A stretch of 64,000 nucleotides of DNA from a virus: IMG/VR virus record IMGVR_UViG_3300034283_000433, positions 4,323-68,322 of that record. The stretch is one strand, 5' to 3'. Positions 2,890 through 45,788 of the stretch are shown piece after piece (the first letter of the stretch is position 1; each line of letters begins with the position of its first letter). The notes beneath the pieces are model-generated. The model ran no database searches, had not been told where the DNA came from, and saw nothing but the letters and a program-made list of their open reading frames with translations. The position numbers and the translations under genes were made by a program.

Positions 2890-3465
2890 TTATACGCTTC
2901 CGTACCATAAACCAAACTCTACAGTATATGTAGTTCCAGGGTCTACTGTAAAACTATATGATATAGCTGTATATCCTGCATTGGTATTTGTGTTAGCCCT
3001 TCTTACCCCATTCACATTGATATAAGAATAGATAGGTTGACAAGGAGATACACCATAACCATTACTAAAAGCTGTTACTGTACAAGTACTTCTACCTCTA
3101 GCATAGATAGTTCCATTACCACCAAAGGTCAGGAATGTACCTGCGTTTGTACCTCTTTCTGAGTTAGTAATGTTATAACCTGCGTTACCACCACCACCAT
3201 AGGGGCCGTAATAGTATCCTCCTACATCTTGTCCCTCTAATTGACCATAAGTATCCATAGACATAGAACAGCCATCATATAGCTGCCCTGTATTCTGAGA
3301 ATAGTTTATGACTGCAGGAGGCAAAGTATACCCATAGAACTCAGATAAAGAGTCTGGCGTAGACTTACCTAATGTTGAACTCAATCCTCTTAAATTGGAT
3401 GTAGACACATTCAGTTCGGTACGAACAGCATTTATACTTATTGCTCCACTAGAAGGTAATGCCAT
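2890..3465 (-). CDS. Putative fibre-tip adhesin
   Basis: MALPSSGAIS..VRTEL...SLSEFYG N-terminus typical of small fibre-tip proteins; G/Y/T-rich body. Confidence 0.6.
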   Translation of the reverse strand: MALPSSGAISINAVRTELNVSTSNLRGLSSTLGKSTPDSLSEFYGYTLPPAVINYSQNTGQLYDGCSMSMDTYGQLEGQDVGGYYYGPYGGGGNAGYNITNSERGTNAGTFLTFGGNGTIYARGRSTCTVTAFSNGYGVSPCQPIYSYINVNGVRRANTNTNAGYTAISYSFTVDPGTTYTVEFGLWYGSV

Positions 3466-3466
3466 A

Positions 3467-3742
3467 TTACGCTAATTCATTTGTTCTAGTAGCTGCTTCT
3501 TCATTCATTTGAGCTGCTGTTTTTACCCACTCATTTGTGAACGCTGCTGCAACGATTTCATCTTTAGAACCTGGAATAGATTGACCAGCTGCTAAGAATT
3601 TCTCTACTGCAATCTTTACGATTTCATCTACAGCAATTCTTGCTCTTTCTTTCATAGCATTCTCTACCCAATCTTGAGGGTCTAATGCTACATACTCCAT
3701 ACCTTTTTTTTCTGTCTCTGTTAATGTTACTGTGTAATTCAT
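3467..3742 (-). CDS. Small helical protein, putative fibre chaperone
   Basis: 91 aa directly after C1q-type fibre gene. Confidence 0.55.
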   Translation of the reverse strand: MNYTVTLTETEKKGMEYVALDPQDWVENAMKERARIAVDEIVKIAVEKFLAAGQSIPGSKDEIVAAAFTNEWVKTAAQMNEEAATRTNELA

Positions 3743-3754
3743 ATATTTTATTTA

Positions 3755-5323
3755 TTATATTAAAAATCCGCTAAATTGACTTTCAAATTGTATGCCAGTT
3801 GAACCTGATGCAATAATAGCACGAGCTTCAACATAATCCCCAGCATTTAAATTTAGAGTTGCACAAACTGTTAATGTATGGTAATTTGAAGAATAACCAC
3901 TAGGCCCTGCAATAGCGTGACCAAATGAAAAGTTTGTAGTACTACCAGTTGCACCATTTATTGTAAAGAATAATCTTATATATGTTCCAGATGTTGAGCC
4001 ATCAAATCTAGTTGTTGAAGAGAATTGATATCTTCCTGCAATAGGTGCAGTAAATCTACCATTAGATGTATTATAATGACTTCCAGTATTATGATGAACA
4101 TTCCCAAAAATAATAACAGTACCTGCCCCATCCCCTCCAGAAACGCTTTGATTATCTCCACTTCTAAATGCCTGAAACGAAGGTTGTCCAGGTCTATCCA
4201 TTCTACCAGCAAAATATGAAAGCCCTGCAGCTGAATCTATATACGCAACAAGGTCTCCTAAAGACCCATCCGCAGTTGGCTTTCTTACGCTTAATTTTCT
4301 ATTACTTGCAGCATTGTCTCCCTGAAAAGAAAATCCATCTTGAATAAGAAATCCAAATCCAGTACTTAATCCTGTTCCTGTTGATTCGCAGAAAATACCA
4401 GCTGCTTTATTTGCTATAGTAGACGCTTGATATAAAGTCATAATTGCACCACCTACATCTAATCTTGCTCTTGGTGATGCCATACCTACTCCTGTATTAC
4501 TCCCAAATGGGTTTATTAAAAGTGGAGCAGCTGTTCCTTCATTGTAACAAGCTTGAATATATGTATAGTTAGCACCTGCATATCCTATTGATACTCCAAC
4601 ATTTGACTCTGTATATAGTTTTATTCTAAATCTTGAATAATCATATGCTTGTTGTGCATTAGTTGCAGCAATTGTAGAACCTGTTGCTGGAAATGCTATA
4701 GTCAATGGCCCTACTGGAGAACTTGTACCAATTCCTAAAAATCCGCCTGCCGTTATTCTTGCTTTTTCTGTTGCAGTCAAAGATGCGTCTGCTGTACCTG
4801 AAGAACTATTTGAAAAAAGTATGTCACCATTTGCCGTGCTTATCATTGTAGATGGTTCTGCATACCTTGCCCTAAAACCACTATTATAATAGAAATTTGA
4901 ACCAAAGTATACATCATTACTAGAGCCAGAAAATAAAGAAAAATTTCTACCTACAAATAAATGAGCAAATGTTGTAGTAGTTGGAGAAGTGACTCCAATT
5001 GCAACATTCCCAGAAGATGTAACAGTTATTCTTCTTGTATTATCGGTTGCTATTGCTAAATCATTTGTACCCTGAGTTCCTATTGTCAATATATCTCCTA
5101 AAGCACCCCCTGTCATAGGACTTCCATTTCCATCCCAATATCTAATAATAGGCAAAACTGCAGAAGCACTAGACCTTTGCAAATAATATGCTCCTGTAAT
5201 AGAGGCTATATCGCCATTAACAGATAATTTATACGATGGGTTAGTTGTGCCCATACCCACATTCCCATTATCTAGGACTGTTATTGCGTTTGGAAATTTA
5301 CTAAGGTCTCTATTTTTCGCCAT
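3755..5323 (-). CDS. Tail fibre with C-terminal C1q-like domain
   Basis: GNVGIG repeats; PSFQA...NTGSHYNTSNGRFTAPIAGRYQF...LNAGDYVE...FSGFLI. Confidence 0.85.
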   Translation of the reverse strand: MAKNRDLSKFPNAITVLDNGNVGMGTTNPSYKLSVNGDIASITGAYYLQRSSASAVLPIIRYWDGNGSPMTGGALGDILTIGTQGTNDLAIATDNTRRITVTSSGNVAIGVTSPTTTTFAHLFVGRNFSLFSGSSNDVYFGSNFYYNSGFRARYAEPSTMISTANGDILFSNSSSGTADASLTATEKARITAGGFLGIGTSSPVGPLTIAFPATGSTIAATNAQQAYDYSRFRIKLYTESNVGVSIGYAGANYTYIQACYNEGTAAPLLINPFGSNTGVGMASPRARLDVGGAIMTLYQASTIANKAAGIFCESTGTGLSTGFGFLIQDGFSFQGDNAASNRKLSVRKPTADGSLGDLVAYIDSAAGLSYFAGRMDRPGQPSFQAFRSGDNQSVSGGDGAGTVIIFGNVHHNTGSHYNTSNGRFTAPIAGRYQFSSTTRFDGSTSGTYIRLFFTINGATGSTTNFSFGHAIAGPSGYSSNYHTLTVCATLNLNAGDYVEARAIIASGSTGIQFESQFSGFLI

Positions 5324-5333
5324 AAATTATTTT

Positions 5334-7586
5334 TTATCCTATTAAATATCCCATAAAGTTATGATATGGATTTGCTGTAGCTCCCATAGCATAGAATGTA
5401 TTTGTATTATCTGTAATCATAAATATTCTAACAGAATCATTAGCTGATAAATTAATAATTACACTTCTATTACCATTTGTTCCATAGTTTGTTCCAGTAG
5501 CGGTAGTGTCAAGCCTTAAATGATAATCACCTAAGAAATTTGAGTTATTTATTCTTAGAAAAAATCTATATACATCATCAGCACTACCTCCAATATCTGA
5601 CCAAGAAAAATAATATACCCCAGCAATAGGAGCTGTAAATATACCATTTGATGCATTATAATGCCCACCTCTATTTAAGTGAACTGTAGGGAAAGTAAGA
5701 TAAGAACCGCTTAATGTATTAAATGAATCACCATTCCCATAAGCTAAAAATGCTGGTTGATTTGGTTTTAAAACTTGACCAGAAGACGTCAAAGATAATG
5801 CATCTACTGGTGTGCCATTAGTTTTTAATCTAAAATACATTCTACCATTAGCATCATTCCATCTACTATCAATATAAGAATTTCCATAGTAATTATCTGA
5901 CCATAAATCTAATCCAGTCGTATTGTCCGTTTGTCTTAAAAATAAGCCAGTATTCCCATATCCGTCAGTTGAATTTATTTGCAAAACTCTTGTTTTTGCT
6001 GGCTGAGATGTCCATCCAGTACCACTTGGCAAAGTAGCCCCTGGAGTTGAAGTATTAATTCCAATATATCCTCCAGGCTTTAAAAATAATCTAAAATCAG
6101 CGACTGATGATTCAACAAAATTTAAACCATCTGCGCTATTCCATTGAATATGCCATTTTTGAACATTACTATTATTTTGAAACCCTATAGCACCAGCATT
6201 AGCTAAAGTAAGTTTTTCATTTCCAGATGTTCCACCTATAATTACATTACCAGAAGAAGTAACAGCAATCCTTGTTGTATTGGCTGTATAATCGTAAAGA
6301 ACAAAATTATTGTTTACATTTTGCAATGCATATATTCTTGGATAAGTAGAATTTGTATTATTAAATACTAATCCTATATTAACCGCTGACTGGTCTCCTA
6401 TTAAATTCAACATATTACCATCTGTAATAGTTGTTCCGTTTATTGCAAATTTTACACCTGTTTGATATAAAGCACTATCTCCTAAAGTCCCTGAAGCAGT
6501 CCACTTAGGGATATAGTTAGTTGTACCTGAACCACCTACTCCCGTAAATGCACCAACTGTATAGTTGTATGCAACTACTTCCACAATATCATTCACCACA
6601 CAAGCCGTGCCTAGAACTATAGAAGTTCCATTAGTCGCAGTAAACTCTGCAGCAGCTAATTTAGCACCATTGTAAAACACATCTACAAATCCTACAGAGT
6701 AGTTAACAGTAAATGTAGTCTGACCAGCAGTAGCTGTAAATGCAGTTGTTTGTCTTAAGCTATTATTAGCTATGAATTGTCCACCATATTTGTAAACTTC
6801 TACAACATCGTTTACAGCGGCAGCAGCTGTCAATACAACTGTTGACCCATTGCTAGCTGTAAACTCGGTAGCGTTGTCTAACTTAACACCATTTAAGAAC
6901 ACATCTACCATACCTACAGTGTAACCACCAGTAACAGTAAATGTAGTTTGTGATGCAGTAGCTGTAAACTTCTGAATTACTCTTGTAGAAACAGAAGAAG
7001 CATCTACTACCCAAGTTCTATTCGCACTTAAGTCGTATGTAGTTCCGTTTATAGTTATTGTTCTAGCGTTAGTAACAGGAGTATATCCTAGTGCGCCAGT
7101 AACATCTGTATCTAATAATGTAATATCACCAGTACGTGTATTGAAGCTAGATATACCAGCTACAATTGTCCAGCTTCTATTTGCTGATAAATCATATGTC
7201 GTACCATTAATAGTAAGTGTACGAGCATTTGTTACAGGCGTGTATCCTAAAGCTCCTGTTACATCTGTATCAGTTAAAGTTATCGCACCTGTTCTTGTAT
7301 TAAAAGAAGATACACCTGATACGATAGACCAGCTTCTATCAGCAGACAAATCGTAAGATGTACCATTGATTGTAATTGTTCTTGTAGTAGGAACATAAGC
7401 ACTTAATCCAGCAGGAGCTACGAAGTCTGTACCTGCAACAGCAGCTACTAACTTACCACTAGAGTCTGCCTTAAGCATAGAACTTGTTACAGTCGTTTGC
7501 GTAAACGAAGCAGGAACAGTAATGTTTCCACTGCCATCGTAGGTTATCAAATAACTTAACTGACCTGTATTTCTAGTATATCCCAT
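5334..7586 (-). CDS. Tail fibre with two branching-type domains and C-terminal C1q-like domain
   Basis: Two TAT.GQTTF..Y.VG.VDVF.NG.KL domains; C-terminal YNASNGIFTAPIAGVYYF...FMGYLIG. Confidence 0.85.
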   Translation of the reverse strand: MGYTRNTGQLSYLITYDGSGNITVPASFTQTTVTSSMLKADSSGKLVAAVAGTDFVAPAGLSAYVPTTRTITINGTSYDLSADRSWSIVSGVSSFNTRTGAITLTDTDVTGALGYTPVTNARTLTINGTTYDLSANRSWTIVAGISSFNTRTGDITLLDTDVTGALGYTPVTNARTITINGTTYDLSANRTWVVDASSVSTRVIQKFTATASQTTFTVTGGYTVGMVDVFLNGVKLDNATEFTASNGSTVVLTAAAAVNDVVEVYKYGGQFIANNSLRQTTAFTATAGQTTFTVNYSVGFVDVFYNGAKLAAAEFTATNGTSIVLGTACVVNDIVEVVAYNYTVGAFTGVGGSGTTNYIPKWTASGTLGDSALYQTGVKFAINGTTITDGNMLNLIGDQSAVNIGLVFNNTNSTYPRIYALQNVNNNFVLYDYTANTTRIAVTSSGNVIIGGTSGNEKLTLANAGAIGFQNNSNVQKWHIQWNSADGLNFVESSVADFRLFLKPGGYIGINTSTPGATLPSGTGWTSQPAKTRVLQINSTDGYGNTGLFLRQTDNTTGLDLWSDNYYGNSYIDSRWNDANGRMYFRLKTNGTPVDALSLTSSGQVLKPNQPAFLAYGNGDSFNTLSGSYLTFPTVHLNRGGHYNASNGIFTAPIAGVYYFSWSDIGGSADDVYRFFLRINNSNFLGDYHLRLDTTATGTNYGTNGNRSVIINLSANDSVRIFMITDNTNTFYAMGATANPYHNFMGYLIG
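7005..7400 (-). repeat. About 2.5 tandem ~53-aa repeats within the 750-aa fibre
   Basis: RTITINGT.YDLSA.R.W x3; SSFNTRTG.ITL.DTDVTGALGYTPVTNA x2 (approximate bounds). Confidence 0.8.
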
Positions 7587-43244: not shown

Positions 43245-43629
43245 ATCTTCGTATTGACTTATTTAAAATGAAAACGAAGATACGTCATTTTGCAGCCTAA
43301 AACTCAATTTGACGTATTTTTTTTACAAAAAATTGAAAAACACATATTGATTTACAACGTGTTACAAGGTTTCCTTCTTATATATATTATATAGAATTCT
43401 ATAGTCTGTTTATAGTCCACTTATTTATATAAAATACTGGACAATCTATAGGAGCCTGGAGGCTCTTGTTTATGTAAGGAATGTAACCGTGCAAGGGAAC
43501 TATATAGTAATACTGCGCATAGTGCCTAGGTGAAAGTCAAATCCTGCAACCGAGTACCCCTAGATTCAAATTGATTATCAAGCAAGTAATATAGGAAAGT
43601 AACCTAGATAGAAAGGTAAATAGATATGC

Positions 43630-43781
43630 TAATGTGTATATTATACACTAAGTAATGTGTAATAAATACACTAACGAGCGTAAGCGATAACCCCTACGAA
43701 AGAAATCGTAAATCCTAAACTCTAATCCCTACTAAACTAATAGACTAATGCTTTATAACTAATGTGTAAAATGTACACTAA
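43630..43781. repeat. Three 22-bp repeats TAATGTGTA-N5-TACACTAA with palindromic core
   Basis: Copies at 43630-43651, 43653-43674, 43760-43781. Confidence 0.9.
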
Positions 43782-43944
43782 CTATAACTCCGAAATGCTT
43801 CGTAATCAAGGGTAAATGTTAAAATTCCTTTAACACATTTCCTGCCATTTAGGGGCGATTTTAGCCCGTCTCCATCGTTTTGGATGTCTACCCTTGGACA
43901 CTCCGAGAAGTGCCAAATTTGGGGAAATGCGCCTTACCTCTAAT

Positions 43945-44003
43945 TGCGCGCGCGTATGTACGCGTGTGTATGTGTGCGCGTGTACGTGTATGCGCACGTA
44001 TGC
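43945..44003. other. 59-bp strictly alternating pyrimidine-purine tract
   Basis: TGCGCGCGCGTATGTACGCGTGTG...GTATGC checked base by base. Confidence 0.9.
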
Positions 44004-44099
44004 CTGCGCGCTATATCCTTATACCACAGCTGTAAAAAATCTTTTAACAAAACCTTAACTAGGCTGTTGATTGCGGTATCAAAACTATTTTGCAGTTTT

Positions 44100-44436
44100 A
44101 CAATGTCAACGGGGACGACCTAATGACACAGCTCTTTTAACGTTTCTTTAACACTCTTGCATACCTGACCTCAATAAGTCACTTAGTCACTGCAAGTATG
44201 GTCTCGCTAGGCTTTCCGCTGTAAAGCGTTGTAGCAATCACGAAGAGTGAGAGAGACCCATCCGATGGTTATGATGGTGCATAAACTCAACCCTGCTTTT
44301 GGTTTCCCTAGGACTATAGGCAGTAAAACTAGGCGACGAAATGGTTCAGTTCCATAGTAGTTGAAGATGGCGCGTTTAAAAACGTTAGCTGTTCGGAGCG
44401 TTGGGTGACAGCAATGCCCTCTAAAATAACGATGTC
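44100..44436 (+). ncRNA. Structured RNA upstream of hammerhead (unknown class)
   Basis: GC-elevated, no ORF in the track; several multi-branch helices with G-U pairs on + strand. Confidence 0.6.
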
Positions 44437-44484
44437 CGCGGATAAATTACTCCGCGCTGATGAGCTGCAGAACAGCGAAACATT
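44431..44484 (+). ncRNA. Type III hammerhead ribozyme
   Basis: GAUGUC^ / stem I CGCGGA-UCCGCG / CUGAUGA / stem II GCUG-CAGC / GAAA / stem III ACAUU; cleavage predicted after 44436. Confidence 0.93.
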
Positions 44485-44498
44485 TAAACCTAAATACT

Positions 44499-44765
44499 AT
44501 GAAAGCTACAATTAACGGCACAATGCTAAACGAAGACAGATTTGTTATTGAATTAAACGCTGAACAAATGGAAGACCTAGCTGTCTACTACTTGCTAGAG
44601 TCTTGCAAGTGGGACGCTAAGAATATCAAGTACGATGGCAATGATATGAGACAAAGAGATACCTACAATAGATTAGCTGACAAGTACTACACAATGTACA
44701 AATCAATCAAGGCTATACAAGGTAAGGAAGAACCAATAGGTGTTGAATATATCCTAGAAAATTAA
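44499..44765 (+). CDS. First early protein, hypothetical
   Basis: ATG 44499 (MKATING) after A-rich leader, just past the ribozyme. Confidence 0.75.
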   Translation: MKATINGTMLNEDRFVIELNAEQMEDLAVYYLLESCKWDAKNIKYDGNDMRQRDTYNRLADKYYTMYKSIKAIQGKEEPIGVEYILEN

Positions 44766-44818
44766 TTAACCACGGGGGTTAACAGCCCCCACATTTTAAC
44801 CTAAAAAAATATACAATT

Positions 44819-45742: not shown

Positions 45743-45788
45743 TCATAACCACGGGGGCGGGCAACTGCCCCCACAAAAACTATCATCA

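Follow-up and report, generated by a model that had tools for sequence, protein, structure and literature searches.

Thousands of phage and prophage hammerhead ribozymes have been known since 2011, and their role is still called open in reviews (PMC6765202; PMC13725137). The closest described case is that of the haloviruses HF1 and HF2 (Perreault 2011, PMC3088659). There, the first ORF of an early polycistronic transcript is preceded by a hammerhead, with 13 nt between the ribozyme and the start codon, and the 5' end of the mRNA has been mapped to at most 3 nt from the cleavage site. The same paper (PMC3088659) describes clustered prophage hammerheads that cleave in vitro and proposes that they process transcripts into single-gene mRNAs; in the Clostridium scindens, Azorhizobium caulinodans and Agrobacterium tumefaciens prophages, hammerheads of mixed permutation punctuate small genes. 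In eukaryotic RNA viruses, type I self-cleaving ribozymes are found just before an ORF, and self-cleavage is needed for initiation of what is there cap-independent translation (2026, PMC13725137).

The window analysed here, 64,000 nt in length, corresponds to bases 4323–68,322 of a 68,322-bp viral contig (CheckV completeness 57%). Its hammerhead resembles that of HF1/HF2 in lying a few nucleotides before the first early ORF of a tailed virus. The HF1/HF2 element is a core or structural variant related to HHmeta that needs high Mg2+/salt and belongs to an archaeal virus, whereas the core in the window is fully canonical and the phage has features that point to a Bacteroidota host. The mixed-permutation prophage clusters have their counterpart in relatives of the window, which itself keeps only the type III element at the head. 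The eukaryotic ribozymes differ in type and in setting, the present one belonging to a DNA phage and to bacterial translation. The hammerhead itself is of a kind known from Perreault 2011, but the rules of spacing and ordering described below may be new: no statement of a fixed hammerhead–AUG spacing or of an order of types in phages was found in the open-access main texts searched.

Terminase, portal and other large genes occupy the minus strand up to 43244 (ORF calls are mechanical throughout). They are followed by a 1.25-kb gap without credible ORFs and then, from 44499, by a plus-strand array of small genes that runs through to primase/helicase. The hammerhead lies in the leader of the first plus-strand gene. 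The features of this region, all on the plus strand, are as follows.

44070–44116 (+): candidate promoter or leader-start block, a conserved stretch with TATTTTG and then CAGTTTTACAATGTCAACGGGG
44431–44435 (+): stem III 5' strand, GAUGU, partner of 44480–44484 (sequence and descriptor)
C44436 (+): C17, the predicted cleavage site, in a GUC triplet
44437–44456 (+): stem-loop I, CGCGGA (44437–44442) paired with UCCGCG (44451–44456), 6 bp
44443–44450 (+): loop I, UAAAUUAC, 8 nt, in which U44443 adjoins position 1.6
44457–44463 (+): catalytic core C3–A9, CUGAUGA (sequence and Rfam alignment)
44464–44476 (+): stem-loop II, GCUG (44464–44467) paired with CAGC (44473–44476), 4 bp, with G10.1-C11.1
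44468–44472 (+): loop II, CAGAA, ending in A44472
44477–44479 (+): catalytic core G12, A13, A14 (GAA; sequence and Rfam alignment)
44480–44484 (+): stem III 3' strand, ACAUU, with A15.1 at A44480; 5 bp including one G-U
44481–44498 (+): 18-nt stretch from core to AUG, G-free, A/U-rich, predicted unpaired in the 3' cleavage product
44499–44765 (+): P0001, the first plus-strand gene, 88 aa, of no known family (ORF list and family searches)

The stretch 44431–44484 is a complete type III hammerhead. Measured against the list of core criteria in Perreault 2011, it carries the consensus at every position (C3 to A9, G12–A14, A15.1-U16.1, H17). The sequence-only reading had described an intact type III hammerhead before the first early start codon, with a full core, a GUC site, G10.1-C11.1 and stems of 6, 4 and 5 bp, and each of these elements can be read in the sequence. 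The stems are free of bulges, also by our own descriptor, and the pairs next to the core are all Watson-Crick (C44437-G44456, G44464-C44476 and A44480-U44435). Stems I and II are loop-capped and stem III is open, hence the type III topology. Hammerhead chemistry leaves a 2',3'-cyclic phosphate on the upstream piece and a 5'-OH on the downstream piece, so a cut at 44436/44437 would place a 5'-OH on C44437 and the cyclic phosphate upstream. The signature of the tertiary contact is also present, in that loop I opens with a U (U44443, beside 1.6) and loop II ends with an A (A44472), as had been proposed; according to Chi et al. 2008 (PMC2553840), a U beside 1.6 forms a conserved Hoogsteen pair with the last A of loop II. 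The hammerhead fold has a predicted energy of −13.6 kcal/mol against a minimum of −14.4, a difference of 0.8 kcal/mol, and the cleaved 3' product is predicted to retain stems I and II with an open leader.

A comparison with the Rfam hammerhead models, which had been suggested as a check, gave a divided answer. RF00008 (Hammerhead_3) matches 44429–44486 over all 54 of its positions, with canonical core and topology and E-values of 4.2e-7 (321 nt), 8.4e-5 (whole window) and 2.2e-8 (68-kb record). The score of 38.6 bits falls below the gathering score of 48.5, which is why a default Rfam scan of the window comes out empty. Our own descriptor found one hammerhead on the plus strand of the window and none on the minus strand. 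When the window was randomised 300 times with a first-order Markov model, the two strands together gave eight loose matches (stems of at least 4/3/3) and none with stems of at least 6/4/5.

The start codon at 44499 lies 18 nt behind the core. In mechanical ORF lists, an in-frame ATG at 44460, inside the CUGAUGA core, lengthens the first ORF to 101 aa. The true start is more probably 44499, judging from the spacing seen in the wider family and from the divergence among relatives, which begins at that position. The 18-nt stretch has no Shine-Dalgarno motif, and its first 4 nt belong to the 3' strand of stem III; the leaders of the plus-strand array are likewise A/U-rich and without such motifs. 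Taken with a BT4734-like domain in the helicase of the array and weak DNA matches to Flavobacterium phages, these G-poor leaders make a Bacteroidota host likely. (A BLAST search of the locus against isolated phages matched nothing but the DUF932 gene, at 68%, in 11 records of Flavobacterium phages; the hammerhead alone gave only matches with E = 8.) A query of viral contigs with the P0001 protein returned no relatives, family searches gave no informative family for the downstream genes, and a tRNA/tmRNA scan of the window found none.

Comparative evidence comes first from six viral contigs (L002–L007) whose DUF932 protein is 77–97% identical to that of the window. Five of the six have a type III hammerhead at the same place, that is, all those that cover the spot; the sixth, L006, is truncated here by the end of its contig, and the motifs that it does show are all of type I. 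L004 and L005 have GUA for GUC and CUGACGA for CUGAUGA, and their stems I and II have changed in a compensatory way; in L007 all three stems differ from those of the window, yet the fold is kept. Among these three contigs, compensatory changes extend to stems I, II and III, and the core shows allowed variation at N7 (U/C) and H17 (C/A).

The hammerhead and its leader (44429–44498) form a conserved island between divergent flanks. Identity between the window and L003 is 36% over 44131–44428, 95.7% over 44429–44498 and 45.8% past the ATG. L002 and L003 have the same hammerhead with a different first gene behind it, which indicates module exchange at both edges of the island, and in L007 a homologue of the window's first gene follows the hammerhead. 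Five sequencing runs contain small shares of the locus (0.05–0.11), none of them recorded as RNA; the four inspected consist of contigs, probably of DNA, and in one of them, X4, a contig fuses 44432–44477 to an unrelated upstream flank.

The wider family, widespread in phages, was collected with a pattern made of the core and the CAGAA loop, in which the loop was fixed and the pairing of stem II was not imposed. It gave 96 matches on 95 stretches of viral contigs and a further 17 stretches, from diverse phyla, among bacterial and archaeal genome contigs. Of the 96 viral matches, 93 have the full type III fold and one, L036, has a type I fold; the other two, L043 and L098, show no hammerhead fold of either type and lie directly 3' of sequence resembling the 3' part of a tRNA. 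In the 66 distinct rows of the alignment, which come from interrelated metagenomic contigs and are not phylogenetically independent, 93.0% of the pair cells are paired. None of 500 shuffles reached this value; the figure is 64.0% after shuffling and 26–44% in slid controls. For covariation the score is 0.784 against 0.193, and both sides have changed at 13 of 17 pairs. Stem I is paired in 92.6%, with both-side changes in six of seven columns; stem II is paired in 100% of the 66 rows, with both-side changes at three of its four pairs; and the four pairs of stem III nearest the core are paired in 97–100% of rows, two of the four columns covarying. H17 is C, A or U in every row. The U beside position 1.6 is also invariant (66 of 66), which fits the conserved U-A Hoogsteen contact described in PMC2553840; conservation of loop II carries no information, since the search pattern had fixed it. 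The proposal of an intact type III ribozyme is in this way supported by covariation as well as by inspection.

The position of the hammerhead relative to the start codon is equally well kept. An ORF of at least 40 aa follows in all 82 distinct members, and in 79 of them the ATG of this ORF lies at most 35 nt from the core, as against 18% of random positions (n = 1640). The median core–ATG distance is 18 nt, which is also the mode and the distance found in the window, and the tight range is 15–27 nt. Of 80 leaders, 56 are G-poor and without a Shine-Dalgarno motif and 24 have one. The proteins encoded behind the ribozyme are small (44–252 aa) and mutually unrelated (mean column identity of 6% among 78 distinct ones); a single one of the 78 has a Pfam match and eight have PHROG matches, all of unknown function. 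Only one of 17 loci tested, each with a member of this phage subfamily, passes the RF00008 gathering score. Threshold-based annotation consequently misses most of the subfamily, and what is limiting here looks to be the threshold rather than the motif.

Hammerheads of other types occupy later positions on the same strand. In the DUF932-linked relatives, the type I elements all have GGTTAA/TTAACC as stem I and stand right before later genes. The hammerheads number six in L007 (one of type III, five of type I), five in L006 (all of type I) and two in each of L002–L005. In the window, and in the whole 68-kb record, there is a single hammerhead and none of type I or type II; several hammerheads flanking genes on one strand, the mark of an array, are thus seen in the relatives and not in the window. 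A scan with the type I design gave at least 120 stretches. Among the matches listed, which cover 218 loci, the type I fold is present at 179 of 192 sites, and 162 of these 179 are distinct; again among the matches listed, the distance from cut to ATG has a median of 22 nt and is 12–35 nt in 129 of the 162. Distinct arrays that combine both types on one strand number 41, and 39 of them open with type III and continue with type I alone. The spacing from one hammerhead to the next is mostly 200–600 nt, or about one small gene. In two higher-GC loci, L020 and L022, the later elements are of type II, which in these lineages takes the internal role that type I has in the relatives of the window. These type II hammerheads, downstream of the head type III and above the Rfam gathering score, lie at 6181–6249 in L020 and at 3416–3479, 3784–3848 and 4247–4312 in L022.

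Some predicted type I hammerheads in the relatives are variants with an extra nucleotide between A9 and stem II (e.g., CUGAGGA-U). Such a residue is tolerated in a viroid hammerhead. The variants are located as follows.

L002, 2921–2984: type I variant with an extra nucleotide
L003, 2919–2982: type I variant with an extra nucleotide
L007, 2872–2937 and 6509–6564: two type I variants with an extra nucleotide
L006: four sites of type I variants with an extra nucleotide

The window has a type I relic before its DUF932 gene, at 44766–44801. It has no catalytic core; what is left is TTAACC, a G5/C5 hairpin containing GGTTAAC, and TTTAACC. At this spot, L002, L003, L004 and L007 have a type I hammerhead, intact or variant. 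The window has therefore lost a type I element that its closest relatives keep, and such elements are dispensable at some positions. The DUF932 gene lies between two G+C-rich hairpins that resemble each other (CCACGGGGG...CCCCCAC; ~44770–44792 and ~45749–45774) and that occupy positions where relatives have type I hammerheads.

What does cleavage at these positions achieve? The sequence-only reading had held that it gives the early mRNA a hairpin-protected 5'-OH end and frees the upstream RNA. An early mRNA with its 5'-OH flush in a hairpin, and release of the RNA upstream, would be consistent with the anatomy of the element and with the family-wide AUG distance. Protection by a hairpin, on the other hand, cannot be the common purpose of phage hammerheads, because the relatives have type I hammerheads at equivalent positions before later genes: by topology, the body of a type I ribozyme stays with the upstream fragment and the 5' end of the downstream mRNA is left bare. 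What the two types have in common is a cut shortly before the ribosome-binding stretch rather than the hairpin.

The comparisons provide directly the motif, its conservation and covariation, the fixed start-codon spacing and the head position in hammerhead-punctuated arrays. From these we infer, for the phage, transcription through the hammerhead, cleavage in vivo and an effect on stability or translation. The explanation that we favour, with moderate confidence, is that a functional and constitutively self-cleaving type III hammerhead sits in the long leader of the early/replication array on the plus strand of a tailed phage and acts as an insulator that defines the 5' end. As soon as the stem III 3' strand (44480–44484) has been made, the RNA would cut itself between C44436 and C44437, and the leader fragment, held only by a weak stem III of 5 bp, would drop off. 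The first nucleotide of the mRNA, already held in a stem I pair, would then bear the 5'-OH, and behind it would come the two ribozyme hairpins (44 nt), the unstructured A/U-rich stretch of 18 nt and the AUG. The 5' end of the first cistron, and the open stretch where the ribosome binds, would be constant irrespective of the sequence upstream. This arrangement agrees with HF1/HF2, the one mapped case, and has, on paper, a parallel in the RiboJ-type synthetic insulators reportedly described by Lou et al. in 2012, in which a type III hammerhead placed behind the promoter and ahead of the ribosome-binding site cuts off a variable leader and stays in place as a 5' structure. RiboJ is an engineered part of plant satellite RNA origin with an additional hairpin, whereas the window's element is natural and lacks such a hairpin; the parallel is one of functional analogy and not of membership.

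The region in which such a leader might begin was searched for promoters. Identity over 44061–44130, around the candidate block, is 77.5% to L005 and 64.8% to L004. The block was viewed against the −7 promoter consensus of Bacteroidota. There is no exact plus-strand TANNTTTG in 44070–44116 or anywhere between 43245 and 44498, and the 87 copies of this motif in the window, with 81 expected, are no enrichment. Sigma-70-like sites do not exceed shuffles either (8 found, 5.6 expected). These searches located no promoter, and so it is RNA-level covariation alone that points to transcription through the hammerhead.

The same 5'-OH end could have the opposite effect. RNase J1 of Bacillus attacks the product of glmS ribozyme cleavage that carries the 5'-OH, a case in which such an end destabilises mRNA rather than protecting it. 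The hammerhead, which shares the cleavage chemistry of glmS, might by analogy be a device for down-tuning or timing, whereby host nucleases attack the 5'-OH end and lower or shorten the expression of the first early gene; the genes behind the family members are small and hypervariable, and could be harmful if over-expressed. On the other side, the first nucleotide after cleavage is paired in a G+C-rich stem of 6 bp, and pairing of the 5' nucleotide hinders the 5'-end-dependent nucleases of bacterial mRNA decay. Destabilisation as such also does not require an AUG spacing held to 15–27 nt, and a down-tuning role for the insulator-like element seems unlikely.

An equally unlikely role would have the upstream RNA as the product: the 1.2-kb intergenic region would give rise to a non-coding leader RNA, and the hammerhead would make its cyclic-phosphate 3' end. 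Long divergent non-coding gaps are common in the family: of 83 distinct members, 35 have a divergent ORF as their nearest upstream neighbour of 80 aa or more, at gaps of 130–1980 nt (1186 nt in the window), 33 have one on their own strand, and 15 could not be classed. The window's gap has conserved blocks, three palindromic sites and an alternating tract. The 300 nt that adjoin the hammerhead upstream are nonetheless the least conserved part (36% to L003, 24–27% to L004 and L005), the region 44100–44436 folds no better than shuffles (z = −0.08), and an Rfam scan gave no match in the region upstream of the hammerhead. Nor would a leader RNA explain the fixed distance to the AUG, or the seven family members that lie at most 32 nt from an upstream stop codon.

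The gap holds other features of its own. The palindromic site is 26 nt long (TAATGTGTA...TACACTAA, with the internal palindrome) and occurs in three copies, at 43629–43654, 43652–43677 and 43759–43784; in this divergent intergenic setting it looks like an operator. The tract at 43945–44003 consists of 59 nt of strictly alternating purines and pyrimidines with CG, TG and CA steps, a Z-DNA-prone composition, compared with 15 nt for the next longest alternating run in the whole window. It sits ~80 nt upstream of the candidate promoter block and has counterparts at the same place in L003, L004 and L005.

The island of 95.7% identity between unrelated flanks, the different first genes behind one hammerhead in L002 and L003, and the join to a foreign upstream flank in run X4 could also be read at the DNA level, the conserved 55–70 nt being a module junction, a patch of homology for the swapping of early genes, with the ribozyme secondary. 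Such a patch should lose pairing or core in copies that are otherwise conserved, and the opposite is seen; compensatory changes in RNA helices and a stem II paired in all 66 rows are not expected of it. As an explanation of the element this has little to commend it, and exchange at the junction is more probably an additional consequence than a competing explanation. A chance motif or a dead, functionless relic is very improbable, since, for all that the Rfam score is under the gathering score and relics do exist (as at 44766–44801), none of 300 randomised windows matches the stems, the core is intact, and the element is conserved with covariation both in the relatives and across the family.

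The insulating, 5'-end-defining hammerhead of the window may be one instance of something broader. We suggest tentatively, and with rather less confidence than for the single element, that phage hammerheads form a positional system coupled to start codons (~18 nt from core, or ~22 nt from cut, to AUG), in which the permutation follows the place in the operon and cleavage licenses translation. At the head, a type III ribozyme would stay on the mRNA as a flush 5' hairpin; between cistrons, a type I ribozyme (type II in other lineages) would remain attached to the 3' terminus of the upstream message. The stretch that the ribosome has to occupy includes the 3' strand of stem III, so that cleavage and release of the upstream strand would license translation.

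The window is a clean case for the biology of these elements, and it yields a testable rule about phage hammerhead function: a fixed distance to the start codon, a place at the head of arrays of small and fast-evolving early genes, and a conserved island between swapped modules. Most of the subfamily to which this rule would apply is hidden by the Rfam type III threshold. Should cleavage indeed define where the mRNA begins and open the stretch for ribosome binding, phages would long have been using the insulator device of synthetic biologists, and natural insulator parts would be available for hosts such as the Bacteroidota. If the positional system is true, each hypervariable early gene would be an independently expressed unit, insulated from its context, and bacterial and phage hammerheads would have a general function.
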